DNA of 62,410 nucleotides, filler included. It is 7 parts of 7 records of this genome, joined end to end, with 100 filler letters (N's around TTAATTAATTAA, not from the genome) between each part and the next. Parts side by side here need not be neighbours in the genome. Positions count along the whole stretch, not along the records: positions 24,812 to 38,941 come from SRR31147125_23532; 6 more parts are not named here. One strand, 5' to 3'. Made by a program: the position numbers and the translations under genes. A model generated the notes under the pieces. That model had not been told where the DNA came from. It saw nothing but the letters and a program-made list of their open reading frames with translations, and ran no database searches. How positions within the stretch are numbered: the first letter of the stretch is position 1; the number at the start of each line of letters is the position of its first letter. This document shows, piece by piece, positions 11,247 to 54,435 of the stretch.

Positions 11247-11346
11247 NNNNNNNNNNNNNNNNNNNNNNNNNNNNNNNNNNNNNNNNNNNNTTAATTAATT
11301 AANNNNNNNNNNNNNNNNNNNNNNNNNNNNNNNNNNNNNNNNNNNN
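11247..11346. other. Artificial contig-joining spacer
   Basis: N44-TTAATTAATTAA-N44 (stops in all six frames). Confidence 0.98.
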
Positions 11347-17028: not shown

Positions 17029-17128
17029 NNNNNNNNNNNNNNNNNNNNNNNNNNNNNNNNNNNNNNNNNNNNTTAATTAATTAANNNNNNNNNNNNNNNN
17101 NNNNNNNNNNNNNNNNNNNNNNNNNNNN
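17029..17128. other. Artificial contig-joining spacer
   Basis: N44-TTAATTAATTAA-N44. Confidence 0.98.
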
Positions 17129-20500: not shown

Positions 20501-22849
20501 GTTTGGGGAAATAAACTGCATTCCAGCAGGTTTTTCGATTATCGAATATGTAAGTGGATCATTGCTTCCACCAGGATCTTTTGGATTTGGCTGGAATGTG
20601 AACTTTGATCCTTCGTACACAGTTCTGTCATTTGTGTTTGCCTGAAATTCCGGAGCTTTGTTTTTGACAGGAACCTGCATAACGGCAAAATAGGGGCTTC
20701 CTTCCTTGCACAAATCCTCAAGAGTTGCATCGGCATCCCTGACAGGATCATCATTTTCGACATCTCCATCAACTTCAGTGAAAACTGCATCGTTATCAAT
20801 TATACAAAGTGCGACTTTAGGATGCTCGACAGTAGGTCCATCAGGATATGAGCGAGTCAAAGTTCCTTTTCCTCTGGGACAGGGATTTTCATAATCACAA
20901 GAAATCCAAGGAGCTCTGGAGCATCTGTTTACATCACATGTTGAAGTTATTTCGTAATGATCGCCGTTGAAGGTTCCATTATAATCTTCATCCCAACTGA
21001 TGATAACGAATCTGTCATCCGGCCCAATCTGTGTTCCCTGTGACGAAAACGTGATATCATCGCCTTCAAATACAGGCAATTCTTTATCGGCAGTAATTAT
21101 AGCTGTCGGAGCTTTATCAGTAATTACAATTTTATGGCTAATAACCGATGAAAAACCATCATCGTCAGTTATCCGAACTGCTATATAAGCATCCTGAGGT
21201 GTATTCCATTCTTTTTCTGCCGGTTCTGTACCGGTTGCATCAGGAGGATCTGCAAAATTGCTTGGATTGTTTGGATCATAATCCAGATCCCATTCGATTG
21301 TCGTAATTGGATCGACATTTTGACTAGTATCGCTAGCAGTAAACGATCCTTTCTCTCCTTCTTGCAAAGTGTCAGGTCCTGAAATATAGGCTTGCGGTTT
21401 TACCTCTGTGATAGTGATATCCGCCGGAACGATTTCTTCAGATGGAAAATCACCCAATGGATCATCATCATCATCGGAAACTCTTAGCGCAATATTTAAA
21501 ACAGTAGCATCTTCAAATTCAGCTTTTGTCCAGAACAATGTCGGCTTGACTGTCGAAGTAAAGGTATTGGTTTCCTCGCGGAAGTTTCCACTGACATATG
21601 TCCAATCCCATTGATATCGAACACTTACTCCTTGAACGGCACCTGGATTTGTTGTCGATGCACTAGCATCGAATTCGATCATATCGCCTTCTTTGATTGT
21701 ATACGGCTTGGTAATCTCCGAAACTCTCTGATCTGAAGAATCCAACAACCAGAGCTTCAAGTCAGCCACAGGGAGAACGTTTGCTGGTGATACCCCACCA
21801 ATGATTTCACGAATAACATGGCAATCTGAATTTGCTTCAAGGTCATAATCGCCATCAAGAGCTTCTGTTAGCTGAACTGTTCTAAGAGCAACTCTAAAAG
21901 GAACATCTGTGGATTGATTAGGTGTCGTATCGGGAAAAGCGTAGTCTACATCTTTTCCTGTTGCCATTGGATTAAATGTTTCTTCGTCACCGGAATAATT
22001 GAAATCCCATTCAAAAATGATATTTTCGGCATTTGCAGGAAAAAGGTCTTTAGCCGAGAAAAATGTTTGAGATCCCTCAATTGCCTGATTGTTTTGATTT
22101 GGAACCGCTGATGGACATTCAGGAATGACATGGACTATCATCGATTTATAATCGTAATTGCCTTCAGCAGGAACCTGCCCATCGAGAACATCATCATCAA
22201 GAACCCTTAAACCTATTCTGTAATCACCAAGCGTATCCCACACATGTGGTCTGGTGTCATAAGTATAATTTGCTTCCGCAGGAACAAAAGGTTCGCTCTC
22301 TTTCCAATCCCAATCCCAGGCATATTCATCAATACCTTTACCGGATGCCGGAGAATGATCAATTGAATCGACTCCGTAAAAAGTATAGATCTTATTTACA
22401 TAAACATAGATTTCTTCTGATTGATCTACACCCTGATAATCTGTTCCATAAAGCTCGGCTTTCGGTTTTTTGTTATTTATCGTAACGTAGATTTCATCAT
22501 AGGCATGAGAATTGTTGTTGTATCTAATGTCCAGAAGAACTGTAAAAACACCTGTTTTTTTAAAGGTATGATTGATATTTTGGGTCAAGGTGCCTGTTGT
22601 TCCAGTTTGACTATCACCAAAATCCCACGAAATGGAATGGATGGTTGTGTTACTACTGGTAGTGTCGGAACCTTCCGCATCGAATGCCAGGGCTACTCCC
22701 TCATCACCACCGCAAGGATCGCTAAGGCAATTCAATTTTGCTGTAGCTCCAAATGCTTCAGCCGAAAAAAGCAGTAAAAACATCAATAAAACGAACTGTG
22801 TCTTTTTTATCAACTTGCTTGAATCAATATTATTAAGAATGCGATTCAT
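17543..22849 (-). CDS. 1768-aa surface protein: PKD/Ig-like repeats, Asp/Cys-rich metal-binding repeats, C-terminal GGC-TM-basic sorting signal (MYXO-CTERM-like)
   Basis: Signal peptide; 'WDFGD', repeated 'LDGS.S.D.DG..L.Y.W.Q..G'; 'DNDGDGY...DCND'; tail GGGGGGCTQSNHINLYILLAMIFACALVAKRKRRKRI. Confidence 0.85.
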   Translation of the reverse strand: MNRILNNIDSSKLIKKTQFVLLMFLLLFSAEAFGATAKLNCLSDPCGGDEGVALAFDAEGSDTTSSNTTIHSISWDFGDSQTGTTGTLTQNINHTFKKTGVFTVLLDIRYNNNSHAYDEIYVTINNKKPKAELYGTDYQGVDQSEEIYVYVNKIYTFYGVDSIDHSPASGKGIDEYAWDWDWKESEPFVPAEANYTYDTRPHVWDTLGDYRIGLRVLDDDVLDGQVPAEGNYDYKSMIVHVIPECPSAVPNQNNQAIEGSQTFFSAKDLFPANAENIIFEWDFNYSGDEETFNPMATGKDVDYAFPDTTPNQSTDVPFRVALRTVQLTEALDGDYDLEANSDCHVIREIIGGVSPANVLPVADLKLWLLDSSDQRVSEITKPYTIKEGDMIEFDASASTTNPGAVQGVSVRYQWDWTYVSGNFREETNTFTSTVKPTLFWTKAEFEDATVLNIALRVSDDDDDPLGDFPSEEIVPADITITEVKPQAYISGPDTLQEGEKGSFTASDTSQNVDPITTIEWDLDYDPNNPSNFADPPDATGTEPAEKEWNTPQDAYIAVRITDDDGFSSVISHKIVITDKAPTAIITADKELPVFEGDDITFSSQGTQIGPDDRFVIISWDEDYNGTFNGDHYEITSTCDVNRCSRAPWISCDYENPCPRGKGTLTRSYPDGPTVEHPKVALCIIDNDAVFTEVDGDVENDDPVRDADATLEDLCKEGSPYFAVMQVPVKNKAPEFQANTNDRTVYEGSKFTFQPNPKDPGGSNDPLTYSIIEKPAGMQFISPNTGRLEWYPSADDVSCTPGQKQHKVSLKVEDDDGGEDTLAFYIDVLDLNDPPEIKFCDPKGVAAALSEYTTTIVGFDPDKCNKQVSYFIKNKKTGMSIGYDTGVFTWTPTEAQIGTTEVDLCVKDHADEEICCQHVIDVGDPKSMAICSAGADQTDVNPGWICQTGSVTKNPQDKELEYLWEQKGDTPEEVILENLSEYKTPPGDPAPSMCFASSAHGEFSFGLACKNEWTTGPEDTAAISILNVKPTAIVIGNRNYDVGTTVSLDATRSMDYNSNDLQDYLQFAWEDIDQALTGSPDLSASELEFTPTQFGVYNFRVTVDDQELASNPTSLKIEILDIDSKKALPYATFTPITCDSENNCSKLDTGVTAKEIMLDASASSSRINEEAVTYKWIFRDGPVAENRIGMYYNQDEEEKLFFTPPEAGKYEFSLTVKDSEDNTSNLFVDSIYIGQEKTDTLEVDMPPVASAGTNQKVNLHAPADTRLSNVNYVKVTLNGSGSLDPEGEELVYRWSQLEGVNVPLIDDATATPSFIAFHSGIYVFSLTVYDGAINGDNTLASKPSIVAISVAPEGNAAPSVSIANLDPYTQSLIVNPNEPVIIDASNSIDPEKTDLTYEWTQISGPAIVLSSWDKSIVSFQPDINDVTYVFRLVVRDVGGAPSLPMNINVRVLKNSNAAPVCVVKETSIATVMGLLVTLDASESFDSDEGDAVEHVWKQIEGETVTLTPTETPGVVNFKPLQTGEYKFSYVAFDGVAYCKEPKEITVTATENTPPVAQAGADAEFCFKKDQVKLDGSASTDVDGHEITYEWSVEEGTAFTVADFSDTTVAKPEIDAISSGRVKVKLVVNDGFTDSDPDYVWIEVQTCIEKDCKDNDGDGYYVGSDCTTEKEDCNDDDATVPDPNPCEDCIDNDADGYGVGADCTGKQDCDDNDPMKNPGDGTCGGVVGPDVDDDGGGGGCTQSNHINLYILLAMIFACALVAKRKRRKRI

Positions 22850-24711: not shown

Positions 24712-24811
24712 NNNNNNNNNNNNNNNNNNNNNNNNNNNNNNNNNNNNNNNNNNNNTTAATTAATTAANNNNNNNNNNNNNNNNNNNNNNNNNNNNNNNNN
24801 NNNNNNNNNNN
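24712..24811. other. Artificial contig-joining spacer
   Basis: N44-TTAATTAATTAA-N44. Confidence 0.98.
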
Positions 24812-27095
24812 CATACCCTCTGGTATAAGGCACAAGCTCATTCCAGAAGACCTTACCATTGGCATGCGCCACCGCCTTACTGGTCGTGGTATTGACATAA
24901 CCATGATCCTTAGCCTGCATAGCCAGTTCTTCTTCAGTAATACCCAGAGACTTGAGCATAGTAGCCCTTGCAGCCGGATCACCTTCATAATGCTGATCAA
25001 GCAGCATACCCATAGCCTGAGCATCAATCTTGATTTCTTCCATCATAGTAGCACGCATTCTAGCATCTGTCTCTTCTGCCTCACGCTCTGTCAGCTTCTC
25101 TTCAAACTCCAGCTGCTGCTGTACATCAAGCTGTTTTTTATACTCCATCTCTATCTCAGCATCAATAAAGTCAGAGTTCTTCTTATAATATTCAACCACA
25201 TCAGCATTCTTATCAAACATGGTTGTATAGTTCTCGAGCTTCTCAGGATCACTGACAATACTCTCCTTGAAATCTTCAAGAGTAAGATCCTTACCCTCTA
25301 CCTCAAGATTCTCACGGATATCAAAATTCTCAACTGGATTACCATCCTCATCCCTGACCTGCAGATCCGGTGCCAGTGTAAGCACCACCGACTCCTTCGC
25401 CTGCGCAGAGAGTCCTGTCTTGTCAATTTCCTCTTTGGTCTTGATTAGATTCTTTGCCCTGTTATGAGCTTCAATAACCTCACCGATTGTAGAACCGGCA
25501 ATTGAGATAGAAGTGGGAACAAAGAGAAACGGAGCAATAGCAGCCTCTTCCAGACTACCGACAAGGCCTTCTTCAATAAGCATCTTCTGAATATTCTCAG
25601 GAGACATCTTTTCTGTAAGCCCCAAGGTAAGTGCCTCGATGCCAGTACCAACCGCATTCTGCCCACCTTCTGTCAGACCTTCTGCTGCTGAATGAGTCGC
25701 AATAGCTTTACCACCACTGAGTAGAGGAGTAGCAACCGCACTAGCATCACCAGTAGCCTTGGCCACACCCTGCAGAGACTTACCAACACCACTCCACAGC
25801 TTCATAGTCCATGCTTCTCCATATGCCTCTACTCCTGCTCTACCAGCAGCCCCTATAAATGCCGGCACCGGATCGACTTCATGCCTTCTCAGCTTCTCAT
25901 AGGAGTTACCGAAAGAAGTAACAGCCACAGAAGCAATGGCAGCCCCTCCGAAACCAGTACCGTACATAACAGCCTGCCCCAGTACCTGCGCCACTGCAGT
26001 AAACATTTTATCAAAGAAAGTTGCATCCCTGAAAGCATTCCTATTCATGAAAGAACTGGTATCAATCCATTCACGCACCTCATCAGTCGCCTTACGGAAT
26101 GTCTCAGAACTTGCAATGATCTTCTCAACCCTGCCTGCCTCTTCTTCCTGAACTCTCTTTTCGAAGAATTCTGTATTCTCTTTCTTGGACTGTTCAAGCA
26201 CTGCAATTTCACTTAAGATCTGCTCATTATCCGGGTAGTCCTCCAGCTGTAACTGCAACTGCTCAATCTTGGTATCAAGCTCTATATTCTGCTCTTTCAG
26301 GAAGTTTTCCTCCTCCTGAGCCTCCAACGACAATCCCCCATTATTCAGTTCTTCAACATAGTTATCATTGGCATGCGCCACCGCATCCATAGGCGCCCAC
26401 ACACTATCTGCAGCACCTCTGGCCATACTTCCTGCCCCAACCTTGAGATGGTGCCATTTACGACCAACAAACCCAGCATAACGCTCTTTGGTAAGATCAT
26501 ATATATTATTCCAAGTCATACTCCCTGCCAGCATATCTTCTGTCGCAGTCTTAAGAATAAAGCTACCAGAATCTGCCAGCCGCCTCATCATCTCAGGTTG
26601 CTCATTCAGCATTCGGTTCGCAAGACTGTACGCATTCGCATCACGGGCAGATCCCTCTGTATATTCAAGCAGCTGCTTACCGGTCTCTTCATCGAGATAA
26701 TCAGTAACCGGAATATTCGGAGCGATAACGCCAATTTCAGCAATCCGGGTCGCAGTCTCTCTATCCACATTCTTACTGACCATAATCGCCTCAATAGGAT
26801 CACGACCTGTAAAATTATGTTCAATCTGCGGCAACGTCTGTAAATCCCTAATCAGAGAAACAGCATACGGTGCTTCATCAACATCCACCCCACCCTCATT
26901 AACAGCCAGATCAACCAGCTCCAGCGGAGTCTCCTGAGCAAGTTCATCACCGATAACCTCCTGCTCCTGCGGCATAAAGCCATAATCCACAGCCGGAGTC
27001 TGCTCAGGCTGCACAGGCTGTGATTCTGTAACTGCTGAAACACTCTCAGTTCTTTCCTCTGAATTATTCCCTGCTACCGGTACTGTCATTGCCAT
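24812..27095 (-). CDS. Large internal virion/ejection protein (gp16-like position), truncated by contig end
   Basis: More than 760 aa open to the gap; Gly/Ala-rich hydrophobic core and 'AAEGLTEGGQ' motif typical of podoviral ejection proteins; synteny. Confidence 0.65.
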
Positions 27096-27110
27096 GATAT
27101 AGTCTTTCTA

Positions 27111-29261
27111 TTATTTAGGTTTGTGTGTGAATACAGGTTTTCCGCTACTGTCCTTCTTCCATGTTGCCTCTATCACTTTTCCTGTCGGAGTGGTATAACT
27201 GTATGAACCATCTTCTGGATTGAACTTTATATTGAATTCATTGGTAGTAAGCCCACGTCTTTCAAGATCTGAGACAAGCTTTTTCTTAATATCTTCATCC
27301 TCAACATACGCCCCCTTCTTACCTTCAACGTGAGCGTTCCGGTATTCCTCAATTTTATGTCTTGACAATTTTCCATTCAGTGGAACTCTTACACTTGTAC
27401 TTTCTCTTTCATCAATTCCCAGACCAGCCTCATAGGATTCTTTATCTTGCTTCTTCCTGAGTTCGGTTACTTTATATGGGATCGTATGTACATACTCCTG
27501 CTGAACCCATAGCTTGACACTCGGCAGGTCAACCGCCCCGGTTCCATTCGCTCTGATATCAGCAATAGCCTCTTTGACAATCTCACTACGTCCCTCCGGA
27601 AGGATTTCAGCTGTTGTAAAGACCGTATCCAGTGTACTTTTATTAGCTTCCGCAGTATAAAAAGACACCGCTTCATCATTGAGTTTCCTCACAGTCTGTC
27701 GTGCTGCAGTAACCTCTTTATTCACAGTATCCCACTGATCCTGTGTAAGATATTTCAGACTCGAGTGATTGAGGTCAACCTTGGCCATCCTCTCCGGATC
27801 ACCCTTGAGACTATTCACTGTAGTAAAGACCTCATCCCCTTCTGCTGAATGCGTATTGGTCTTGATCTTATAAAGCAGATCCCCAGCCTCTTTCATCTTC
27901 TTCCTGTCATAATAAACAGTCTGCCCAGTCTGCTTATCATCATACTTTACCGGCACACGCCCTTCCCGGAGATTATTCTGAAAATGCTCTTCTGCAGCGG
28001 TATCAACCCGTGCTATTTCTTCTTTATCTGCTTCCTGCAACCTGTCAACATACGCATCGATCTTAGACTGAGCCTCAAGACCCTGCAGCCCATAATCATC
28101 CATAGCCTTCTTCTTGAGTTTCTGATCACCGCTACTTAAAGCCATATACATATCATTACCGATACTCTTGATAACCCGTTCGCCCTGCAGCTTCCGTAAC
28201 TCTTCATCAAGACTCAGAGTGATATCATGCTTTGCTGCATCATCCAGTTGATCTGCACTGAAACCAAATATTTTGTTAGCTCCGACAATATCACCTTTTT
28301 TAATATGATCAGCTATAACACTCTCAACATACTCAGATGAAGAACGTTCAGCCAGAGCATCGACATCTGTCGGATTGCCATTCTTATCTACAGAATTCAA
28401 TGAACCATTTAGAAACAATTCAGACTTTTTCAAATCAACCATGTTCTCAAGAATATTCCTCAGATCCTCACCACCATCAGTATTGATACGCCCAAGAGCC
28501 TCTTTGAACTGGTTCTCTGCTGTAGCATATGAATTGTTAATATTTGACAGATGAGTCGCAGTCTCACGCTTACGCAATTTATTATTATGAGACTTAATCG
28601 CCCTCGCCCATTCATCAGCACGGGATTTCAATTTCTTCAACTTATCTGTATCTTTCATCCCGGATGAGGCCAGCTTCTCTTTAATCCTCTGCATATCTTC
28701 AGCAAAGACAGCACGAATCTTTTCGCTCTCATCATTCGGGTTATACCCGTCAAAGGCAAACCTTCTATTCAGTCGGTCAAGCTCTGTCTCACCCTCACCT
28801 GAATCTGCAGTATACCCCGAACCGGCAATCGCATAATCACTATCAACATACCCCATAGAGAGAGGCAAGCCAACATCCCCACTTTCACTTTCCGCTTCTC
28901 CAATATCAAGATCCAGTGAACTGTTAAACAACTTCTCAACATCACTGACAGCCATAGATGACTCCCATGCAGCTTTACTATAAGCCGCCTGTTTATTTGC
29001 AAACTTTTCCGCCTGACCCTGAGCCTTCTTAGCAGCAGCTTTACGCTCATTCTCCAGCCTCTTCTGCTCTGCCTCCTGCTCATTCTTCTGCTTGGTGGCA
29101 GTACTCATCATACTACCTGAAGCACTGAGCAGTCCATTCCCCATATCAGCCATTGCTGCAGCATCCCCACCGCCAAAGGCAGCTGCGGTAGCCCCTCCAT
29201 GATACTTACTCTGCCCCATAGGCCTCGACTCCACCTTCGGCACAATTATTTTTATTGCCAT
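27111..29261 (-). CDS. Internal virion/ejection protein (gp15-like position)
   Basis: 716 aa, helical; N-terminus 'IIVPKV...ATAAAFGGG...MGNGL'; synteny after gp14-like gene. Confidence 0.6.
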   Translation of the reverse strand: MAIKIIVPKVESRPMGQSKYHGGATAAAFGGGDAAAMADMGNGLLSASGSMMSTATKQKNEQEAEQKRLENERKAAAKKAQGQAEKFANKQAAYSKAAWESSMAVSDVEKLFNSSLDLDIGEAESESGDVGLPLSMGYVDSDYAIAGSGYTADSGEGETELDRLNRRFAFDGYNPNDESEKIRAVFAEDMQRIKEKLASSGMKDTDKLKKLKSRADEWARAIKSHNNKLRKRETATHLSNINNSYATAENQFKEALGRINTDGGEDLRNILENMVDLKKSELFLNGSLNSVDKNGNPTDVDALAERSSSEYVESVIADHIKKGDIVGANKIFGFSADQLDDAAKHDITLSLDEELRKLQGERVIKSIGNDMYMALSSGDQKLKKKAMDDYGLQGLEAQSKIDAYVDRLQEADKEEIARVDTAAEEHFQNNLREGRVPVKYDDKQTGQTVYYDRKKMKEAGDLLYKIKTNTHSAEGDEVFTTVNSLKGDPERMAKVDLNHSSLKYLTQDQWDTVNKEVTAARQTVRKLNDEAVSFYTAEANKSTLDTVFTTAEILPEGRSEIVKEAIADIRANGTGAVDLPSVKLWVQQEYVHTIPYKVTELRKKQDKESYEAGLGIDERESTSVRVPLNGKLSRHKIEEYRNAHVEGKKGAYVEDEDIKKKLVSDLERRGLTTNEFNIKFNPEDGSYSYTTPTGKVIEATWKKDSSGKPVFTHKPK

Positions 29262-29273
29262 TGTTAAATCTTT

Positions 29274-29774
29274 CTAAGCAAAGAATGAAAGTGCGTTCAT
29301 ACCGACACTTGCAAAATCCCCGAATACCGAGGCAGAACTTGAAGACTGTTTACTGCTCCGGAGCATGCGTGCCTGATTGAGGTAATTTGTCCTCTGAATG
29401 TCATAATCCTCAACCTCTTTATCACCATTCTCAAGTATCTTGTAATGATCCTCAAGCTTACCACGGGCATCCTGAGTAAGAATAGTCTCTGCAGTACCAG
29501 TCAATTCCACCCCACTATTTACCAGAGTACTTACATGATCCCCCATAATTAGATTAGCATCACGGTCACTCGTTTTCGCATCTTCATAGCTACGCTCTTT
29601 AGCATCCTGAATCTGCTTTGACATCTGAGCCGCATTAAGTTCAGCAACCTGAGCGTTATACTCCTTTGCCTGATTATCTGCCTGAATGGCCTGAGACTGC
29701 GCAGAAGCTTTGGCCGCAGATCCAGCAAACCCAGTCACAACCGCCCCAACAGCCAGAGCAACAGGACTACACAT
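29274..29774 (-). CDS. Internal virion protein (T7 gp14-like)
   Basis: MC start, Ala/Gly-rich N-terminus, 'YNAQVAELNA', 'SGVELTG' motif, hydrophobic C-terminus. Confidence 0.75.
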   Translation of the reverse strand: MCSPVALAVGAVVTGFAGSAAKASAQSQAIQADNQAKEYNAQVAELNAAQMSKQIQDAKERSYEDAKTSDRDANLIMGDHVSTLVNSGVELTGTAETILTQDARGKLEDHYKILENGDKEVEDYDIQRTNYLNQARMLRSSKQSSSSASVFGDFASVGMNALSFFA

Positions 29775-29785
29775 AACCCACCCCC

Positions 29786-30256
29786 TTATTTATCACGGAC
29801 ATCCTTATAGAAATGACAAAACAGCTCCCCATTACACCCCATCGCTACCGGCTCTTCGATAGTAAAACCAAGCCACTCCAGCCATTTTTTGCTGAATGTA
29901 TTGTCATTATCAACCCAATTTTCAAGATACGGATACTCTTTCATAAGCTTTCTAAGCTCCCGCCTTGTGTGACGAGCAACAATAATAGGAGATCTTTCAA
30001 TTACATCTGTTCCCAAAAGCCATGCAAAAGACTGATCCGAAAATACCGACGGTGCCCACACACCCCAGACAACCGCAATCTCCCCGTCAATAAGGCCGGC
30101 ATACGCTTCTGTCGATCTTCGATATGCATCTATAAGCCCAAAGTGAGGCTCTTGCAAGCCATACATCTTTCTTATTTCTTCCTGATCTTCTTTGCGAAGT
30201 TTACCCCTCAATGCTCTTATATCCTTCGCAGTACACCTTCTCACTTCATATTCCAT
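29786..30256 (-). CDS. T7 gp13-like protein (GNAT-fold internal virion protein A family)
   Basis: 'LRKEDQEEI', 'AWLLGT', 'LENWVDNDNTFSKKWLEWLGFTI'; ATG 30256 overlaps the adaptor stop (TGATG). Confidence 0.8.
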   Translation of the reverse strand: MEYEVRRCTAKDIRALRGKLRKEDQEEIRKMYGLQEPHFGLIDAYRRSTEAYAGLIDGEIAVVWGVWAPSVFSDQSFAWLLGTDVIERSPIIVARHTRRELRKLMKEYPYLENWVDNDNTFSKKWLEWLGFTIEEPVAMGCNGELFCHFYKDVRDK

Positions 30257-30864
30257 CAGCAATTCCTTGCAGTTAAAAAGTCATTATAAAAATGCTCCTC
30301 TTCAAAACTTTCATTGGAGGCATTTGCCTTAGCCTCTTCTTTTGCTTCATCATATAATGACTTGCAGATTTTGATTTTATTGGTATCACCAGTTAGCTTT
30401 GTCACTATCTTCGAAGCCAGCAGATATTCAAACATCTCGACAAAACTGTCATCATATACATTAGAATCCGCTATATAAGTAACATATTCCAGCACAGCCA
30501 TGTTCTCATTAGTAAGAATGACCTTACCGGTTCTGTTATTATTAACCCGTACTGTATACTCAATCGCCCTAGCCGAACGTCCTCTTGGATTGAGAACCTT
30601 CAACGGCTTGAGGCAGTCAAACGGGTACTGATATGCATACATGAAATCAGGGTGTGGATAAAGCTCCTGCTCTGCTTCAAGCGTCAAAGCTATTGTCGCT
30701 ACGGCAAAGCCCCAAGGGTGATCCCTCAGAGCTTTACGCAGCACAGAATCATAAAATCGCTTGCAGGCTACCGCACTGGCATCTTGACCGTCATCAATAT
30801 CCGAGATTGAAGCCAGCCCTATATGCAGCAATGCCCTGTTACAGATATCCAGTTCAATTGACAT
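30256..30864 (-). CDS. Head-tail adaptor (tail tubular protein A-like)
   Basis: 'LDICNRALLHIG...ACKRFY...LRDHPWGFA...YAYQYPFDCL...F...LA'. Confidence 0.85.
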   Translation of the reverse strand: MSIELDICNRALLHIGLASISDIDDGQDASAVACKRFYDSVLRKALRDHPWGFAVATIALTLEAEQELYPHPDFMYAYQYPFDCLKPLKVLNPRGRSARAIEYTVRVNNNRTGKVILTNENMAVLEYVTYIADSNVYDDSFVEMFEYLLASKIVTKLTGDTNKIKICKSLYDEAKEEAKANASNESFEEEHFYNDFLTARNC

Positions 30865-30883
30865 TATGATTCCCCTCCCCTGT

Positions 30884-31088
30884 TTACTTCTTCACTACCC
30901 TGACAAACTTCAGAAACTTCGGCACTTCTCTCTTTTTCAGCGTATGCCTGTCGCCACGCCGCCATGTAAACCCACCGAACTGCCCACCTCGAATAGCTTC
31001 AAACCGATACTCTTCACCCTCAACCTTTGTTTCATCCGGTTTGTCAGATTGAGGGCTTTCCTCTTGTGTACTCTTACGTCTGGGCCAT
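30884..31088 (-). CDS. Small phage protein (~67 aa) hidden by a one-base insertion
   Basis: Strong RBS AAGGAGGGGAG before ATG 31088; removing one C from ATGGCCCAGA gives MARRKSTQEESPQSDKPDETKVEGEEYRFEAIRGGQFGGFTWRRGDRHTLKKREVPKFLKFVRVVKK, stopping just before the adaptor RBS. Confidence 0.6.
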
Positions 31089-31120
31089 AATACTCCCCTC
31101 CTTCATTACTTACAAAGTCA

Positions 31121-31516
31121 CTACTTGAGATTATGAAAAGCGTACTGCTCACTCGGTGTCAACCCAGCCCAATACTTACCGGCTGTCGCTGTACCGCTCT
31201 TATCCACTTCAAGAATAAGATATCTCTTATCCAGCGCCGGAACTTCAAACATAGCAGTAAAGCCTTTCGTAAGCTTTGCCACGGCATACTCTGGAGTAAC
31301 AAGAATCTCAGTCTTGTTCTCAGTACCAGCCTCATCATCAGCCAGATAAAGCTTGAAGTTTGCCGAAGTCAGACCAGCCCCATCTTCCGACATCTCCATG
31401 AAAAAGTTCAGACCCTTTACCCTGCCAAGTCCTTTGCCTCCCATATCAATAACAGTAGGCACACCATCAACAAGGCTCAGAGTCTGTGCAAAAAGATTTG
31501 CAACATCCATCAACAT
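31121..31516 (-). CDS. Capsid cement/decoration protein (Bbp16-like)
   Basis: 131 aa right after capsid gene; 'MLMD..NLF', 'KRYL.L...GTATAGK..AGL'. Confidence 0.75.
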   Translation of the reverse strand: MLMDVANLFAQTLSLVDGVPTVIDMGGKGLGRVKGLNFFMEMSEDGAGLTSANFKLYLADDEAGTENKTEILVTPEYAVAKLTKGFTAMFEVPALDKRYLILEVDKSGTATAGKYWAGLTPSEQYAFHNLK

Positions 31517-31573
31517 AATATATCTCCCCTATAACTATCAATTAATTTTAACCTGATTCAAAAAGAGGGTAGA

Positions 31574-32590
31574 CTACTCTACCACTCTCTCTTCATCAGT
31601 AAGAATTGCATCACACTCCTTGATCTTGTACCCCCAGAAACTCTTGACAGGCGCACCCTGAGTCTTGGTAATATCAATCGGACTAGTCTTCTTCTGCGAC
31701 AACTTAGTCAGTGCTGCTGCTACAGGAGTAGAACAGTAGATAACCGGACTAACACCCTGAATTGCCCTCACTGCATTTGGAATCTTATAGTATGCGTCTG
31801 TCAGCAGATCAATAAGATCAACAGCCTCAGCATCACCCTGTATAGCCTCAACCGGAATATTGGCAATACGCACAGTAGAACGCCAGTCTTCAATGCAGAG
31901 ACCGAGCTTACGAGTATAATAATCACGATAGACTGGACGACCGTCACCATCCCCATTCGTATCAATACTCTTACCAAAATCCTCACGATTGATACCGAGT
32001 GTTCCACCCTTTGGATATAAACCATAAACCGTCTGTGGCGACCAGTTCACAATCCAGATAGAAGTATTATCATCACCAATACCACCCGCATCGATCACGT
32101 TATACCCAATAGATTCCTTATCACTCGAAAGTCTACTGTAACGTGGAGTCAAACCGTCAAAACCACGAGGATCCTCTGCCAGACTGGCATAAAGCATCAT
32201 ATGAGCCGAGGTATTACCAATACCCATAATAGTAGCCTTGGACTCATCCACACGGATTGACGCACCATTACCTTCTGCCGCACTGCCGTCAATAAACTCT
32301 GCATCGATCTCAGCCCACGTCTCAATAGAACCTGTGGTATCAATCTGCTTCTGAGTAGTCGAACGACCCTTTGGAATATAATCATTGACCATTCGGAAGT
32401 GTGCGGAAGGTAGAGATGTACGGTACTTCGACTCATGATTCTCACCAGAGTTGCACTGCACCCACCCCATATCCTCCATAAACGGATCAGACTGCTGCAA
32501 AAACTCCACAGTCCTACCCATAACCTTGTTATCACCCACCAGCCGTGTCTTAACATCGGCAACAGTGAAATACTGATTCTTTAAAGCCAT
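31574..32590 (-). CDS. Major capsid protein (BPP-1 Bbp17-like)
   Basis: 'RTSLPS..FR..N', 'FDGL.PRY', 'DAGG.GDDNTSIW.V.W', 'G.YPKG', 'GL...DWR..VRIANI', 'DAIL..E'. Confidence 0.9.
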   Translation of the reverse strand: MALKNQYFTVADVKTRLVGDNKVMGRTVEFLQQSDPFMEDMGWVQCNSGENHESKYRTSLPSAHFRMVNDYIPKGRSTTQKQIDTTGSIETWAEIDAEFIDGSAAEGNGASIRVDESKATIMGIGNTSAHMMLYASLAEDPRGFDGLTPRYSRLSSDKESIGYNVIDAGGIGDDNTSIWIVNWSPQTVYGLYPKGGTLGINREDFGKSIDTNGDGDGRPVYRDYYTRKLGLCIEDWRSTVRIANIPVEAIQGDAEAVDLIDLLTDAYYKIPNAVRAIQGVSPVIYCSTPVAAALTKLSQKKTSPIDITKTQGAPVKSFWGYKIKECDAILTDEERVVE

Positions 32591-32631
32591 AACTTCCCCC
32601 TTTACTTAAAATAATATTACTGCTTCCCCTA

Positions 32632-33426
32632 TCAACCTTCTTTGAGCATCCTGTCACGCTTTGCCTGTTCCGGGAAGAATGCCTCTTCATCTGACACTTC
32701 CTTAGGTGGGGCACTGTGTCGAGTCTGTTCAATACCATCCTCTGCCGTACCTTTATGAACACTATTCAGAAATCTGTTGACTGCTAGATTATTACTGATC
32801 TTGGTATCCATCAGCAGCTTTTTAAACTCTTCTCCACCGTCATATTGATCCAAGACCTCAAGACTCTTCTGAATAGTCTCCTTATACTTTGCTCCGCCAA
32901 GCTCCGTATCAGTCTTAAGTTCCTTCTTCCACTGGATTGTCTGATTATCCCACTGCTTCTGCATAGCGACTTCAGTACGCCTCTGAGCCTCCAGACCAAG
33001 CTTCATCAGATGCTTTGCCTTATCCTTGCCAATACCGAGTTCTTTAAACTGCGAAGTCGTCTTGCCAAGCATCTCCTCATCAACATCCATCTCATCTGGA
33101 AAATCAAACTCATACTCAAAATCATCCTGATTTACTTCATCTTCTTCAGGATTTTCAGAACCACCGTCCTCTTTCTCATCAAAGACACTCCCACTGTCTT
33201 CATCATCTTCAGCAGGTTTTTCACCTTCTTCAAAAACGCTTCCATCATCATCCGTGCCTTCTTGCCCCGACTCTCCTGCATCTTCATCCTCGGAGCCTTC
33301 CTGCTCACCACCTGCCCCGATAGAGTCATCAACCCCAGAGTCCATGTTTCCTTCTGTAGAAACCTGCTCAGTACCAGCACCGATAGAATTATTAACCCCA
33401 GAATCCATATTCCCTTTGCCTGCCAT
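32632..33426 (-). CDS. Scaffolding protein
   Basis: Acidic disordered N-terminus, 'YEFDFP', 'W...LK.D.ELGG'; immediately upstream of capsid gene. Confidence 0.75.
   Translation of the reverse strand: MAGKGNMDSGVNNSIGAGTEQVSTEGNMDSGVDDSIGAGGEQEGSEDEDAGESGQEGTDDDGSVFEEGEKPAEDDEDSGSVFDEKEDGGSENPEEDEVNQDDFEYEFDFPDEMDVDEEMLGKTTSQFKELGIGKDKAKHLMKLGLEAQRRTEVAMQKQWDNQTIQWKKELKTDTELGGAKYKETIQKSLEVLDQYDGGEEFKKLLMDTKISNNLAVNRFLNSVHKGTAEDGIEQTRHSAPPKEVSDEEAFFPEQAKRDRMLKEG
33301..33414 (-). repeat. 63-nt (21-aa) tandem duplication at the scaffold N-terminus
   Basis: GNMDSGVNNSIGAGTEQ / GNMDSGVDDSIGAGGEQ; DNA copies at 33301-33351 and 33364-33414. Confidence 0.85.
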
Positions 33427-33454
33427 ATTATCCCCTTCATATCTCTAATTTCTC

Positions 33455-33862
33455 TTATCCACCAATACAACTGAAAGCTTGTTCCAGATACTCAGCAAAC
33501 ATCACACATCCCCATACAAAAGCCGAAAAACTCAGCAAATTCAGCACCCATGAGATATACGCTAACAACTTCCCGAATTTGTTCATACTGACACTCTGGC
33601 AAAACTGACACAGATAGGTAACTGCACAGCCGCCAATAACCAATATAAATCCACTAAAGAAAAGCTTCAGGCAATACATCAATTCCATAGCAGGTGAATA
33701 CACAATACCTGTTGTAATCATGGAAATAACCACCAGCAACATTGCCAGATTAGCAATAAACCCCATCGTAATTGTCAGTGAACCATAGCTGATAACACTC
33801 TTATAGATCACTGATTTCTGTTCCAGATACTCATTTCCTTTTACCCAGTCAGCTGTTTCCAT
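33455..33862 (-). CDS. Hypothetical 3-TM membrane protein inside the head module
   Basis: Likely start ATG 33862 (METADWVKG) behind GGAG, overlapping the upstream stop; three hydrophobic helices. Confidence 0.65.
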   Translation of the reverse strand: METADWVKGNEYLEQKSVIYKSVISYGSLTITMGFIANLAMLLVVISMITTGIVYSPAMELMYCLKLFFSGFILVIGGCAVTYLCQFCQSVSMNKFGKLLAYISWVLNLLSFSAFVWGCVMFAEYLEQAFSCIGG

Positions 33863-34400
33863 CTTCTTCTCCAATTTCAAAATCTTCCACAAATTCATCC
33901 TCACATACATCCCTGTTCAAAGCCTGCTCAGGTAGCATCTCTACCTTCTCCGCCTCTGCCTCTTCCGGCTTCTGCTTCTTTTCTACAGATTCCAGTTCAA
34001 TAGGATCTGCACCAACAAACCAGTCCATGATAATCGCCTGAATTGACTTCTTACCTTCATGATCCGCCTCTTCATAAGCAGCACGTAAATCAAGCATCAT
34101 CTGGTTAAATTGATTAAACCTGCCAAGATTAAAAGCCATTACTTCCGGAGAAGCTACCGTATTACCTTCATAATTCTCAAGGTCAAAACCATCCTGTAAT
34201 TTTTCAACATACCAGTCTCGATATTCCTTCTGACTGCACAAACGCACCAACCGCATATTTATTTCACGATTCTTCGCCTCTTGTAATAAGTCAAAAAGTT
34301 GCTGCTTATACTTGGCTGTTTCATCATCTTCATAATCACCAACAATCTGCAGCTTCTTCTCTAACTCAACCTCGTCATGTGATTTCACGCTTATCTCCAT
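33849..34400 (-). CDS. Hypothetical phage protein downstream of portal (Bbp19-like position)
   Basis: 183 aa; 'MAFNLGR' resembles the 'AFNEG.R' motif of this family; synteny. Confidence 0.6.
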   Translation of the reverse strand: MEISVKSHDEVELEKKLQIVGDYEDDETAKYKQQLFDLLQEAKNREINMRLVRLCSQKEYRDWYVEKLQDGFDLENYEGNTVASPEVMAFNLGRFNQFNQMMLDLRAAYEEADHEGKKSIQAIIMDWFVGADPIELESVEKKQKPEEAEAEKVEMLPEQALNRDVCEDEFVEDFEIGEEDGNS

Positions 34401-36138
34401 CCATTTCCATCATCTTCTGCAACATATCAACATCAGTCTCCGAAGCCTCTTTTGCTGTAGACACAGTCTGTTGTACCTGATCAGCCATAGCCTGTTGCTG
34501 CTGCATCTTCTGCCTGTCCTTACGAACCTTGTCAACCTCTTTATTATCCTTGGCCAGATCCTCCTGACAGAGAATAACGCTGACCTTTCTCAAGGCCTTA
34601 TCCCAGTCAACAACATCATTAGAGGCTGGATTCATCTGAATGATCGGTGCTACCGAAGTAATATACTGATTGAGTGCATTGATCTCACTCATCTTCTGAG
34701 CCTGCGCCAGAATAGATACATAATCAATCCTCAGTTCTCCGCCCTGAAGATCCTGTGGTGCCTGTGGAATAATATTGCCAATATCCAGAAGAATACTGAA
34801 GCATCGTTCAAAGATGTAGTCGAGAGCTTCTTTCTCCAAAAGTTCAATAACCGGAGTGATTCTGCCCAGCTTCTCCGCATTAATAGAACTCACTTCCGTA
34901 GCCGACATAGATTTATCTTTATTCATGATCGGAGTAAATAAATTTGCATAGAAGACTTCTCGGATATCTGCAATAAGACGATCCTGCAAGATAGATGCTT
35001 CTTTAAATGCACCATTTGTCTGATAGATCGGTGCGATCTGAGAACTCTGATTGAGACCAGCCGCATAAGTTACCCCATTCGGTTGTAGCCTGATCTGACT
35101 GTTTTTCATCTTACCGTCAGCCACTACAGGAGGACTAACAGCCTTACGCAACCCTTTAAGACCTTCATGCATTATCTGGTACAGCATCTTAATATCAGGA
35201 AGAGCCACACGAGCTGGACATGAACCGTATACCCTACCGGTCAGCTTCTCCCAACGTGGAGCCACAAACGGCTTACTTTTAAACCCACCGACTCTCAGAA
35301 CGATGCTTTCATCAGAACTACTATTACCATCACCCTGCCTGAAGAGATGCACGCTCTCCCAAGGCATATTGGAAGGATCTTTCTTTTCATCATCATAATT
35401 CTGCCGAGGCCTTATAACCTGAATTACCTCATATTTCTTTTCAGAGGTTTTTGATTCCCTGGACTCTTCAAGAATATTATCAGGCAGACGAAGTTCACCA
35501 TACTTATCAACAAGGCCTCTTGCTGAGTAATATGACTTACGCATCAACGTATCAACTTCATCCTTATGATTGGTATCCAGCCAATAGTCACCACATGACA
35601 GAGTGGTAAACCTGAATGCAGTATCAGGATCTTTCTCTATCAGAATAACCCCCTGACCGAATAATGCCATTTCACTGAATAACTGATACATTGCCCCATA
35701 GATATCAGCCTCATTGAAATAATGACGCAGGGTATCCCGTACTCCGCCTAACCATTTTTTCGCGCGAGTAGACGTATTCCCTGCGTCACCTTTAAAACCT
35801 ACATCAAACCACATCCGGGAAGGCGACACCAGACCGCCCTGCATACCAGACGCAAGTGCTTTCACAGCCAACTGAGGACTCGATGTCATCACCTTGCCCT
35901 GCCTGTTCCTGCCGTTATTGATTGATTCCTTGCCGGATAATGCAGCTGCCACCTCTGGAGAGATATTATCTCTGACCTCAATCCAGAGTGACTCCCACGA
36001 AGATCTCTCCTGCTCAAGAGACTTGATCAGATTTAGGTAAACCTGCGTATCGACCTTCAATACAGGTTTACTCTTCTTCTCAATATGCTCTTTCGTATCC
36101 TGCATGGATTCAAATTCTGAATATACTGAAGCACTCAT
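34375..36138 (-). CDS. Portal (T7-type head-tail connector)
   Basis: 'ALASGMQGGLVSPSRMWF', 'PRW...G.VYG.CP', 'MSATEV...EKL...PV', 'YVS.LAQAQK'. Confidence 0.93.
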   Translation of the reverse strand: MSASVYSEFESMQDTKEHIEKKSKPVLKVDTQVYLNLIKSLEQERSSWESLWIEVRDNISPEVAAALSGKESINNGRNRQGKVMTSSPQLAVKALASGMQGGLVSPSRMWFDVGFKGDAGNTSTRAKKWLGGVRDTLRHYFNEADIYGAMYQLFSEMALFGQGVILIEKDPDTAFRFTTLSCGDYWLDTNHKDEVDTLMRKSYYSARGLVDKYGELRLPDNILEESRESKTSEKKYEVIQVIRPRQNYDDEKKDPSNMPWESVHLFRQGDGNSSSDESIVLRVGGFKSKPFVAPRWEKLTGRVYGSCPARVALPDIKMLYQIMHEGLKGLRKAVSPPVVADGKMKNSQIRLQPNGVTYAAGLNQSSQIAPIYQTNGAFKEASILQDRLIADIREVFYANLFTPIMNKDKSMSATEVSSINAEKLGRITPVIELLEKEALDYIFERCFSILLDIGNIIPQAPQDLQGGELRIDYVSILAQAQKMSEINALNQYITSVAPIIQMNPASNDVVDWDKALRKVSVILCQEDLAKDNKEVDKVRKDRQKMQQQQAMADQVQQTVSTAKEASETDVDMLQKMMEMDGDKREIT

Positions 36139-36157
36139 TTACTTTCCCACTCCCCCT

Positions 36158-36604
36158 TTAGAACGGCACATCGTCATCATCATTAGATAGTCCGTTCGGA
36201 TTATCAACGCAATAAGCGTTAGTCAGATCAGTCGACTCTTCAAATCCCTGACCATCTTCAGCAAATCCTGTACGTTCCCCACCAGAATCACGCTTTCCCA
36301 CAAAAGACATATGCTTAATCACAAATGTCATTTTATTGACCCAGCTGCCATCTTTCTTCTTATAGTTTTCTGACTTTGGTGTACATTCAAACAGAGCTTC
36401 AGATCCCTTTTTCAAGTACTTTTCTATAACCCTTGCAGTTCCATCCCATGCCTGAAGATTATAGAAATACGCAGTATTTGCACTTTTATAAGTCTTGGTA
36501 TTCACCGCTAAGGTGAAATTACAGACATCCTTCCCGTTCGGAGTCTGCGTTACTTCAACATCCTTGGTAAGTTTCCCCTCAAGAATTGCGATACAATATC
36601 CCAT
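36158..36604 (-). CDS. ssb: Single-stranded DNA-binding protein
   Basis: OB-fold motifs 'G.LTKD.E...TPNG..V.NFTLAV', 'YLKKGS'; acidic tip DDDDVPF. Confidence 0.92.
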   Translation of the reverse strand: MGYCIAILEGKLTKDVEVTQTPNGKDVCNFTLAVNTKTYKSANTAYFYNLQAWDGTARVIEKYLKKGSEALFECTPKSENYKKKDGSWVNKMTFVIKHMSFVGKRDSGGERTGFAEDGQGFEESTDLTNAYCVDNPNGLSNDDDDVPF

Positions 36605-36607
36605 TGA

Positions 36608-36832
36608 TTATCCCCCCAGAGTCAATGATTTATCCTGTGCCTCAGCTGTTCCATCAAGTCCTGTCGTACTTGTAGCTACCGTACCACCTGCTGAACTTGA
36701 AGCCAGTGCTGCTGCATTATTATGAGCAAACTCATTCACTTTTTTTACTTGCTTCGATGCTACAGCCTGAACAGACTCGGCTGGAGGTGTTGGTGTAGCT
36801 CCTCCCCCACCAGTTGGCGCAGATCCACACAT
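36608..36832 (-). CDS. Small virion-associated protein (T7 gp6.7/7.3-like position)
   Basis: 74 aa, MCG start, low complexity, ends 'TGL...KSLTLGG'. Confidence 0.7.
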   Translation of the reverse strand: MCGSAPTGGGGATPTPPAESVQAVASKQVKKVNEFAHNNAAALASSSAGGTVATSTTGLDGTAEAQDKSLTLGG

Positions 36833-36844
36833 AAGATCCCCTCT

Positions 36845-37081
36845 CTATCCAAGTGTTGACAGCTTAGTATTCTTACTGTCGGTCTCTTCAGTTAGCCCAG
36901 CACCACCATTCTTCACGTTATTTGCACCATTTGTATTGGCCGCAAGTATCGCCTTCTGGTTTGCAGCTTCCTGATCCAGATCTTTATCAGCCTGTACCGA
37001 ACTTGGCGCAGAGGCCTGAACCGAACTTGCCACAGGTGTTGTTGAACTGCCTGAACTACCACTATTTCCCAATAAACACAT
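36845..37081 (-). CDS. Small virion-associated protein, paralog of 36608..36832
   Basis: ATG 37081 behind GGGGAG; MCLLG start, shares 'TP.A.SVQA' and ends 'AGL...KLSTLG'. Confidence 0.7.
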   Translation of the reverse strand: MCLLGNSGSSGSSTTPVASSVQASAPSSVQADKDLDQEAANQKAILAANTNGANNVKNGGAGLTEETDSKNTKLSTLG

Positions 37082-37100
37082 AGTAAAAGCTCCCCTTCTT

Positions 37101-38551
37101 TTAACATGCTGAATAATAATCAAACAAATCAGTATCATCATCAGTAACTACATTTCCTTCTCCCTCTTCCCAACAGCTTTCATCATAATCAGCATAAATA
37201 ATAGTTTCATCTGCAAATGTAAGCGCAAAAGCATCACCGAGATCAGGGGAGTGCTTCAGCCTGCGTTTCAATTTATCCTTACTCTCAAGTTCTATCTGAA
37301 CCCGTGGTGTAAATGAGTACTCTGGAGAGACCAGATCTTCGATAAGACTCTCATTACTCTCAATGCCGCCTCTCTCCAACCACTCCTTCATTCTTGCCCA
37401 GATCTCAGTCCTGCGATACTTATACCTCTCAGTGTCATCAGCATTCTCACCGAAATTAACCGCCTCAACCGGCAACTTCAGATCCAGCAGATTATCAACC
37501 ACACCAGCACCAAGACCACCGACATCGACACAGATCCGCTTGAATTTTCTTTTTCGATGTTCCTTGACCACCAGCTTGGTAAGCTCTGTGAGCGAGTTCT
37601 TTGGTATTACATGCAAAATTTTAGAGTAAAGCCCCTGTCGCAATATCAGGCAAGTTTTATCATCACCGTACCGAGTACGTCAACGCCGAGAACCTTTGCC
37701 TTGGATTCATACAGCTCCGGATCCCGCACCAGCTCAATCCATCGCCTAGTTGCACAGTCGACCAGATCACGGCTGATAAACTGCATATTACCCTCATCAG
37801 GAAATTCGCCCAGGACACGTACCCGATATTCGTTACTCTCTTCGCCAAACTGAGTCGCAATCTCATCAGCAAAGCCCGGCTTCACATTCGCACTATCAAG
37901 ACATGAGAGAGTGAAGTTAATCCACTTCTTCTTCTCGCCTTTTTTCTTTGGTTTGAAAGTATCAAAAAAGAATCCGGTATTCTTGGTTGGGTTACCGGTA
38001 AGCAGAAAGCGTGCACCATCAGTAGTAAGCGCACCCATAGCCACCTCAAAGATCACCTTATCCACACCAGAAGCCTCATCCACCAAGAACAAAAGGTTCT
38101 TTGCATGAAACCCCTGCAATGCATCAGGATTCTCTTTACGGGCTGTTCTGGCCTGAATAAAGGAATTTTCACGACCAATAATGGTCACTCTTTCAATTGT
38201 AATTTCGATTTTATCTTTGAACGGGGATCTCATATGACCATGCCACTTGCGTAGCTCACCCCACATGGTAGATTTAAGCTGCTCTTTACTCGGAGAAGTA
38301 ACCGGCACCTTACAGTCATCAAAGCAGGAAATAAACCACAACGCCAGACAGGCCAGCAGTGAAGTCTTGCCAACACCATGACCACTCTTAACGCTAATCC
38401 ATGCGTTAGACTTGGCCACAGCCAGACATATTTCTTTCTGTTGATCAGTAGGAACAAATTTAGGAATGACATCCTTGAAGAATGCGATAGGATCACTGCG
38501 CCATACAGGCAGCATCCTTGCTATATATTCGCTGGTTAATGCCTTAGCCAC
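37101..38551 (-). CDS. terL: Large terminase subunit; single apparent frameshift at ~37675
   Basis: Walker A 'SGHGVGKT', Walker B 'LVDEASG', 'TGNPT', 'RVLGEFP'; adding one base restores 'LGVDVxRYGDDKT'; C-terminal 'SPDLGDAFALTFA'; probable GTG start 38551. Confidence 0.92.
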
Positions 38552-38697
38552 AACCTCTTCCCCTTCCCATGCATATAGCCTGCCATATAACAGCACAAAG
38601 CTATTAATATGATGGGAAAACAGAAGGTAGTGTACACTCTCCCCAGAACACCACTACCAAATGTGGAAGACATCAACCGCACCACTAGATATTGTGG

Positions 38698-38725
38698 ATT
38701 TTATTCAACTTCAACCGAAAGTCAA
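38698..38725 (-). promoter_or_regulatory. Sigma70-like promoter upstream of terL
   Basis: TTGACT-16 nt-TAAAAT preceded by an A/T-only UP-like tract, about 150 nt before the terL start. Confidence 0.5.
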
Positions 38726-38941
38726 TATTAATTATAATTTTTTTTTAAATAAAGCTTTCTAAGCCACCCAAATATGCTAATAGGTGTAACCACTACTGGA
38801 ACACAACAAGCTTACAGCAGAGAGTTATCTGAGGGAATAATATAAGAAAATAATTTCTACTGAGGGATGCGTATGTAAGATTGTGGAGTATTCTAAAATT
38901 TTTCTATGGAGTACCTTGGCGGTTTATGGAATAAAGCGCCG

Positions 38942-39041
38942 NNNNNNNNNNNNNNNNNNNNNNNNNNNNNNNNNNNNNNNNNNNNTTAATTAATTAANNN
39001 NNNNNNNNNNNNNNNNNNNNNNNNNNNNNNNNNNNNNNNNN
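38942..39041. other. Artificial contig-joining spacer
   Basis: N44-TTAATTAATTAA-N44. Confidence 0.98.
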
Positions 39042-48990: not shown

Positions 48991-49090
48991 NNNNNNNNNN
49001 NNNNNNNNNNNNNNNNNNNNNNNNNNNNNNNNNNTTAATTAATTAANNNNNNNNNNNNNNNNNNNNNNNNNNNNNNNNNNNNNNNNNNNN
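48991..49090. other. Artificial contig-joining spacer
   Basis: N44-TTAATTAATTAA-N44. Confidence 0.98.
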
Positions 49091-54335: not shown

Positions 54336-54435
54336 NNNNNNNNNNNNNNNNNNNNNNNNNNNNNNNNNNNNNNNNNNNNTTAATTAATTAANNNNNNNNN
54401 NNNNNNNNNNNNNNNNNNNNNNNNNNNNNNNNNNN
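54336..54435. other. Artificial contig-joining spacer
   Basis: N44-TTAATTAATTAA-N44. Confidence 0.98.

Follow-up and report, generated by a model that had tools for sequence, protein, structure and literature searches.

A podovirus head and ejection-protein module with a gp13-like gene directly after the adaptor: probable relocation of the nozzle gene in a lineage of Planctomycetota prophages

The window analysed here is a stretch of DNA of 62,410 bases, and positions 24812-38941 within it encode the head and ejection-protein module of a podovirus in which the adaptor gene is followed directly by a gp13-like gene, with no nozzle gene between the two. This contig is probably a fragment of a temperate epsilon15/BPP-1-like podovirus whose nozzle gene was relocated within its own genome, that is, a known type of podovirus with a rare gene order, and the host is most likely a member of the Planctomycetota. 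The reading rests mainly on two prophages in Planctomycetota genomes that share the gene order of the window and carry an intact nozzle gene at a distance from the late operon. The original prediction, made from the sequence alone, had proposed a tail-incomplete particle belonging to a gene transfer agent (GTA)-like or satellite-like element and had kept a simply rearranged phage as a fallback; the evidence from the relatives favours the fallback.

The window consists of seven contigs, unrelated or unordered, placed end to end and joined by six spacers of the form N44-TTAATTAATTAA-N44 (11247-11346, 17029-17128, 24712-24811, 38942-39041, 48991-49090, and 54336-54435). The region 24812-38941 is exactly one whole contig of 14,130 bp between two of these spacers; it is cut at both ends, carries all of its genes on the minus strand and represents roughly a quarter to a third of a phage genome. 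Because of this composition, the genes that flank it in the window lie on other contigs and are not true neighbours. Genes were called by PHROGs and Pfam profile searches of the predicted proteins (E, expect value; aa, amino acids; ORF, open reading frame; L008 is one of the two prophage loci with the gene order of the window):

24812..38941, minus strand: whole contig, podovirus head and ejection-protein module
37646..38596, minus strand: TerL, ATPase part (phrog_2, E 8e-34; 64% identical to residues 1-289 of the L008 TerL)
37101..37679, minus strand: TerL, nuclease part (45% identical to residues 290-476 of the L008 TerL)
36845..37081, minus strand: mc1, 78 aa, Gly/Ser/Ala-rich, ends in LSTLG (paralogue of mc2 by alignment)
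36608..36832, minus strand: mc2, 74 aa, ends in LGG (paralogue of mc1 by alignment)
36158..36604, minus strand: single-strand DNA-binding protein (SSB; PF00436, E 1e-19)
34375..36138, minus strand: portal (PF12236, E 1e-115; phrog_332, E 1e-122)
33849..34400, minus strand: orf183, no family assigned (kept in both Planctomycetota prophage types)
33455..33910, minus strand: orf151 (no family match in PHROGs or Pfam)
32632..33426, minus strand: scaffold/protease-like protein (phrog_458, E 3e-24)
31574..32590, minus strand: major capsid protein, epsilon15 GP7 type (PF20911, E 8e-89)
31121..31516, minus strand: cement protein, Bbp16 type (PF21190, E 1.5e-6, 28.9 bits with a cut-off of 27.1)
30937..31152, minus strand: small ORF, 71 aa (ORF call only)
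30256..30864, minus strand: adaptor, tail tubular protein A type (phrog_394, E 2e-48; 35% identical to epsilon15 gp11)
29786..30256, minus strand: gp13-like internal virion protein (phrog_308, E 2e-33)
29274..29774, minus strand: gp14-like internal virion protein (PF24072, phrog_418)
27111..29261, minus strand: 716-aa protein at the gp15 position, predicted to be almost all alpha-helical and apparently not a nozzle
24812..27095, minus strand: protein at the gp16 position, N-terminal 761 aa, cut by the contig end

These profile matches bear out the gene order given by the original prediction, from terL to the gp16-like gene, and the module has the composition of an epsilon15/BPP-1-like phage: a GP7-type capsid protein of the HK97 fold with a Bbp16-type cement protein, a T7-type portal with a tail-tubular-A-type adaptor, and gp13- and gp14-like internal virion proteins followed by large ejection proteins. 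PHROGs searches at E up to 10 gave nothing usable for orf151, orf183, mc1, mc2 and the C-terminal part of TerL.

Apart from the nozzle gene between adaptor and gp13, epsilon15 and phage Tyrion are collinear with this module. The junction reads ...AAT TGC TGA TGG AAT ATG..., where the A of the adaptor stop codon TGA is also the A of the gp13-like ATG, and an AAGGA motif lies 8 bases upstream of the gp13-like start. The stop/start overlap (TGATG, with the AAGGA inside the adaptor gene) is therefore as originally described. The absence of a nozzle gene at this place holds as well, since tblastn searches with the epsilon15 nozzle and two Planctomycetota nozzles as queries matched none of the window's seven contigs; likewise, no nozzle, fibre, TerS or integrase gene was found in the 14.1-kb contig. 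That no nozzle directly follows the adaptor concerns the gene order and not the virion. The rarity of the junction was assessed in 145 adaptor-bearing loci from three collections (genomes, IMG/VR, and metagenomes). The gene after the adaptor encodes a nozzle in 127 loci, many of them near-identical enterobacterial or gut prophages and hence non-independent, and gp13 in two, with too little DNA to judge in the remaining 16. An adaptor-gp13 junction, present in two out of 129 judgeable loci, is unusual and rare among the loci surveyed.

A protein search with the adaptor returned 19 hits, the best of which (P0001, 81% identical) lies on a 53,048-bp ENA contig; the other hits were 28-59% identical (49-59% for P0002-P0016), several of them on contigs of 3.8-4.0 Mb. 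An alignment-based adaptor scan with one genome per species identified 24 loci. The eight closest (54-57% identical) are all located in metagenome-assembled genomes of Planctomycetota, five of the eight in closed chromosomes, and their architectures were read by mapping the window and epsilon15 proteins onto them. The usual order, with the nozzle gene between adaptor and gp13, was found in six of these loci (L003, L004, L005, L007, L009, and L010). The other two, L006 in genome G002 and L008 in genome G001, have the order of the window (TerL-mc1-mc2-SSB-portal-orf183-scaffold-capsid-cement-adaptor-gp13-gp14-gp15-like-giant protein), so that the same adaptor-gp13 junction that the original prediction had suggested looking for in related clusters does occur, and it occurs in two separately assembled genomes, one of which is a closed 3.56-Mb chromosome. 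In both loci gp13 begins 10-16 bases after the adaptor, with 6-12 bases between the two genes and no overlap, and the proteins are 30-63% identical to those of the window. Among the eight closest loci, homologues of the gp14, gp15-position and giant proteins are present only in L006 and L008. A single-protein adaptor scan of the viral contigs collection found no loci, and alignment scans of viral and metagenome contigs recovered relatives of at most 36% identity with the usual order wherever it could be judged.

Whole-genome searches of G001 and G002 with the L003 nozzle as query revealed a second, intact nozzle gene in each genome, on the strand opposite to the late operon. This relocated nozzle and the L003 nozzle share about 61% identity in the first ~525 residues and 54% in the C-terminal part; the distance of the relocated gene from the start of TerL is 15.7 kb in G001 and about 18 kb in G002. 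The product of the G001 gene (3306855-3308972, plus strand) is 705 aa long and has a full-length match to phrog_376 (E 2.8e-153) as well as a match to PF25675 (Phage_nozzle). The gene is preceded by genes for a YqaJ exonuclease, a phrog_3657 protein, a Lin1244_N protein and a helix-turn-helix (HTH) protein. After it come ORFs of 100 and 153 aa and the gene for a 492-aa integrase, and then host genes for DHDPS and a TRAP transporter. The layout in G002 is the same, with 92-98% protein identity for most of the genes compared and 65% for the 100-aa ORF.

Fibre and TerS-like genes are also present in the G001 prophage. On the 3' side of its late operon are the 3,120-aa ORF of the giant protein, a 260-aa fibre protein, proteins of 429, 156 and 118 aa, a TerS-like protein and an Mrr nuclease, and the prophage also has DNA methylases. 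The 260-aa protein carries a podoviral fibre N-terminal domain (phrog_1640, E 9e-14) and matches 12 further families, eight of which are tail, tail-fibre or tail-spike families. The TerS-like protein (138 aa) matches phrog_51 (E 6e-7) and scores 23.2 bits against PF03592, below the cut-off of 26.1 bits. A direct repeat of 21 bp occurs in exactly two copies in each genome (at 3263256 and 3311572, 48.3 kb apart, in G001; 52.8 kb apart in G002) and encloses the late operon, the nozzle gene and the integrase gene. The two elements are ordinary integrated prophages with a relocated nozzle gene. They sit in differing flanks, and the nozzle gene elsewhere in the phage genome, an observation that the original prediction had set against its own proposal, is present in these relatives. 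ARAGORN called a permuted transfer-messenger RNA overlapping the 3' end of the integrase gene (L031 5075-5661; L032 6397-6981), a call that was not relied on; the 21-bp repeat resembles a tRNA T-arm plus acceptor and lies inside the region so called.

A further instance of the HTH-nozzle-ORF-integrase end is a prophage remnant in genome G003 (L033 14163-19540, L034 1-2043), which is truncated by an IS3-family transposase element. What is left comprises part of a phrog_3657 gene, a Lin1244-like gene, an HTH gene, the nozzle gene, a small ORF and the integrase gene, and the nozzle is intact (696 aa, 89% identical to that of G001). In addition, a search with the relocated nozzle of G001 as query identified P0034 (700 aa, 52% identical) on a 53,048-bp ENA contig; the contig of P0001, the closest adaptor relative, probably also encodes this nozzle homologue. 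Separately from these comparisons, each of G001 and G002 was seen to contain a pair of related podoviral prophages, which differ in that the nozzle gene lies between adaptor and gp13 in the first and is relocated in the second (contig C1 of G001, 3273775-3294362 and 3362865-3383461, ~89 kb apart; contigs 7 and 11 of G002). The proteins mc1 and mc2 (36608-37081 in the window, 4633-5089 in L008) are tandem Gly/Ser/Ala-rich paralogues of ~75 aa with an LGG-type C-terminal region. Their genes separate TerL from SSB, and conservation is confined to the relocated-nozzle lineage (L006 and L008).

The phylogenetic analysis was based on portal, adaptor and capsid. The portal tree has 12 rows, with loci whose match covered <45% of the query left out; the window, L006 and L008 form a group (support 96/96) that is sister to five usual-order elements, namely those with a portal within the locus (99/97). 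A quick version of the adaptor tree unites the six usual-order elements in a clade (96 in the Shimodaira-Hasegawa-like approximate likelihood ratio test, SH-aLRT) that excludes the window, L006 and L008, and these three lie at its base without a resolved order. The capsid tree gave no resolution. The module is therefore mosaic, and it is the junction and the regions on either side of it that tie the window to the relocated-nozzle lineage.

Judged from sequence and, for the 716-aa protein, from a predicted structure, neither of the two large proteins of the contig looks like a nozzle. Neither the 716-aa nor the 761-aa protein had a usable match in PHROGs (E up to 10), Pfam or the PDB sequences; the best values in the PDB sequence search with the 716-aa and 779-aa ORFs were E 0.04 and 0.037, to unrelated proteins. 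Both lack detectable similarity to epsilon15 gp15, gp16 and gp17. The nearest named Atlas cluster of the 716-aa protein was T7 gp15, at 0.91, which is a weak pointer, and a profile-free search of 1.84 billion representatives yielded only four homologues. An AlphaFold model of this protein, built from a six-row alignment, is poor (predicted local distance difference test, pLDDT, 61; predicted template modelling score, pTM, 0.31) and consists of nearly all long helices; the nozzle fold is beta-rich. A Foldseek comparison of the model with the PDB gave nothing at E <= 0.001. The T7 ejectosome (7k5c_A) was considered as a fold match and dismissed, as it appeared at rank 28 with E 0.4 and provides no evidence. 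The protein at the gp16 position is 32-44% identical to residues 5-650 of the 3,120-aa protein of G001, whose gene (L156 580-9942) is a single unbroken ORF with a ddrB-ParB domain; in this the protein resembles the polyvalent proteins of phages and conjugative elements.

In the scenario that best fits these observations, the nozzle gene would have moved out of the late operon in this lineage. Both full relatives have it on the opposite strand, where the early region ends, behind the HTH gene and just before the integrase gene. The operon in the window would supply the adaptor, and genes past the contig ends would supply nozzle and fibre. A normal short tail is expected, as virion assembly is independent of gene order. 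The nozzle gene of the window phage itself would thus lie outside the 14.1 kb.

One feature of the contig points in a different direction. TerL is split by a frameshift near 37675: the first ORF stops prematurely behind ...GVDVLGTVMIKLA, the nuclease part resumes in the -1 frame with RYGDDKT..., and both halves match the single TerL of epsilon15 and of L008. Together with the failure to find a nozzle gene in the contig, and with the G003 remnant as proof that remnants of this phage type exist, a broken TerL is what would be seen in a decaying prophage in which the nozzle gene has been deleted and from which no particles are made. However, all other ORFs listed are open, the last being ended solely by the contig edge, and the nozzle-free junction is common to intact prophages and is therefore no sign of decay. 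Public reads bear on the frameshift too. A single public run matched the contig, with 0.14 of the sampled words; its Logan contigs are short, have a depth of ~2 and cover 18 out of 30 bins of the phage contig, and 20 out of 22 near-identical pieces match at 99% or more. One Logan contig at the TerL site shows A>G at 37674, an extra C behind 37675 and T>C at 37676, changes that restore the frame as GVDVARYGDDKT, although its depth of 2.1 does not allow an assembly error to be told from a strain difference. A decaying remnant is accordingly considered an unlikely explanation.

An assembly artefact, with the loss of a 2-3-kb nozzle gene at 30256, would fit with the fragmented source assembly and with a public run that carries the sequence at a depth of only ~2. 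It is nevertheless scarcely credible: the stop/start overlap is in frame and comes with a ribosome-binding site, the same order is found in two other assemblies (one being the closed chromosome), and no joint or indel near 30256 was reported among the Logan pieces listed, with the bridging of this position by one single piece unconfirmed. The original prediction had argued for evolved loss or relocation rather than an assembly deletion; relocation is supported by the junction in the two separately assembled Planctomycetota genomes, and loss is not. A truly nozzle-less satellite- or GTA-like element, with filled heads that have adaptor and ejection proteins and borrow nozzle and fibres from a co-resident phage, would account for the lack of nozzle, fibre, TerS and integrase genes in 14.1 kb, and a donor could exist, given that G001 and G002 carry two related podoviral elements at once. 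However, the contig is cut at both ends, so that absence from it says little, and no Logan contig runs past these ends. The sole elements with the same junction encode nozzle, fibre, TerS-like protein and integrase themselves, between att repeats, and the adaptor keeps 36 invariant columns over 16 aligned homologues (the window protein and P0001-P0015, taken irrespective of element type). Such an element is therefore regarded as very unlikely.

Several observations weigh against a relocated nozzle gene in the window phage. Its own nozzle gene was not seen in the 14.1 kb of the phage that are present, and no contig of the window has one. TerL is frameshifted in this assembly. The relatives are distant, given 30-63% identity in the shared genes, so that the phage of the window could differ from them, and the G001 and G002 prophages are nearly the same and amount to about one independent case. 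For capsid, cement and adaptor, the relocated-nozzle type offers no nearer relatives than the usual type does; the usual-order prophages are the closest to the window in capsid (77-80% identity, compared with 70% to the relocated-nozzle type), cement and adaptor (55-57%). Finally, the placement of P0001 and P0034 on one contig rests only on equal size and the same source.

Epsilon15 and its relatives (Uetakevirus; Enterobacter phage Tyrion) are temperate podoviruses that, like the window, have a collinear set of TerL, portal, scaffold/protease, GP7-type capsid, Bbp16-like cement, adaptor, gp13 and gp14 genes, with epsilon15 and Tyrion proteins 26-38% identical to those of the window. They differ in the 825-aa nozzle gp12 (819 aa in Tyrion) that epsilon15 encodes between adaptor gp11 and gp13, and epsilon15 lacks the SSB, mc1 and mc2 genes that the window has between TerL and portal. 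In the usual-order Planctomycetota prophages, a gene for a 690-960-aa nozzle separates adaptor and gp13, the mc1, mc2 and SSB genes are absent, ~4 kb are inserted between portal and orf183, and the gp14-gp16 region differs. The prophages at L006 and L008 have the genes from TerL through the giant protein in the same order as the window and share its adaptor-gp13 junction; they differ from it by the short gap in place of the overlap and by an intact TerL of 476 aa in place of a split one; nozzle, fibre, TerS-like gene and integrase are seen in both, whereas the phage of the window is known from 14.1 kb.

GTAs and capsid-forming satellites such as RcGTA and capsid-forming phage-inducible chromosomal islands (cf-PICI) have a head cluster without a full set of tail genes. 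The head cluster in the window, by comparison, is a cut fragment, and its relatives are full att-bounded prophages with nozzle and fibre. A GTA would be a chromosomal cluster without integrase or att sites; the comparison could be made for the relatives only, and these have the att-like 21-bp repeat, an integrase and differing flanks. A cf-PICI-like satellite brings its own genes for capsid and packaging but none for tail or ejection proteins, measures ~10-15 kb and has its own integrase and replication genes, whereas the window encodes an adaptor and four ejection-type proteins and the relatives measure 48-53 kb. The proposal of a GTA-like or satellite-like tail-incomplete particle does not agree with relatives of this size that combine att boundaries with integrase, TerS-like, fibre, recombination and nozzle genes. 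A full-text literature search, which was not exhaustive, found no report of a relocated nozzle gene; in PMC10386132 the word "nozzle" has no occurrence and "gene order" has one, and there is nothing on a relocated nozzle gene.

The other six contigs add little. The G+C content of the seven contigs spans 0.29 to 0.54. A 1,768-aa PKD-repeat protein and a 484-aa ORF lie on one side of the phage contig in the window and a type II secretion/pseudopilin operon on the other, all on other contigs; the 1,768-aa protein (17543-22849) has many PKD/K319L-like and Ig-like domains and is unrelated to the phage. GspE, from another contig of the window, has no orthologue in G001-G005, and a PPK from a further one is 45-46% identical to the G001-G005 proteins. 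The proteins of these two contigs are not close to G001-G005, so the contigs are uninformative about the host.

That a short contig with cut ends lacks a gene does not mean that the phage lacks it. The comparison with the relatives defines a little-known lineage of temperate Planctomycetota podoviruses with the nozzle gene ~16-18 kb from the late operon, beside the integrase gene; few described phages are known from the Planctomycetota. It is conceivable, though unlikely, that the placement of the nozzle gene next to the integrase gene and under control of an HTH protein is a checkpoint that uncouples tail completion from head assembly; the expression pattern of the relocated gene might reveal whether these phages control the completion of their tails separately.

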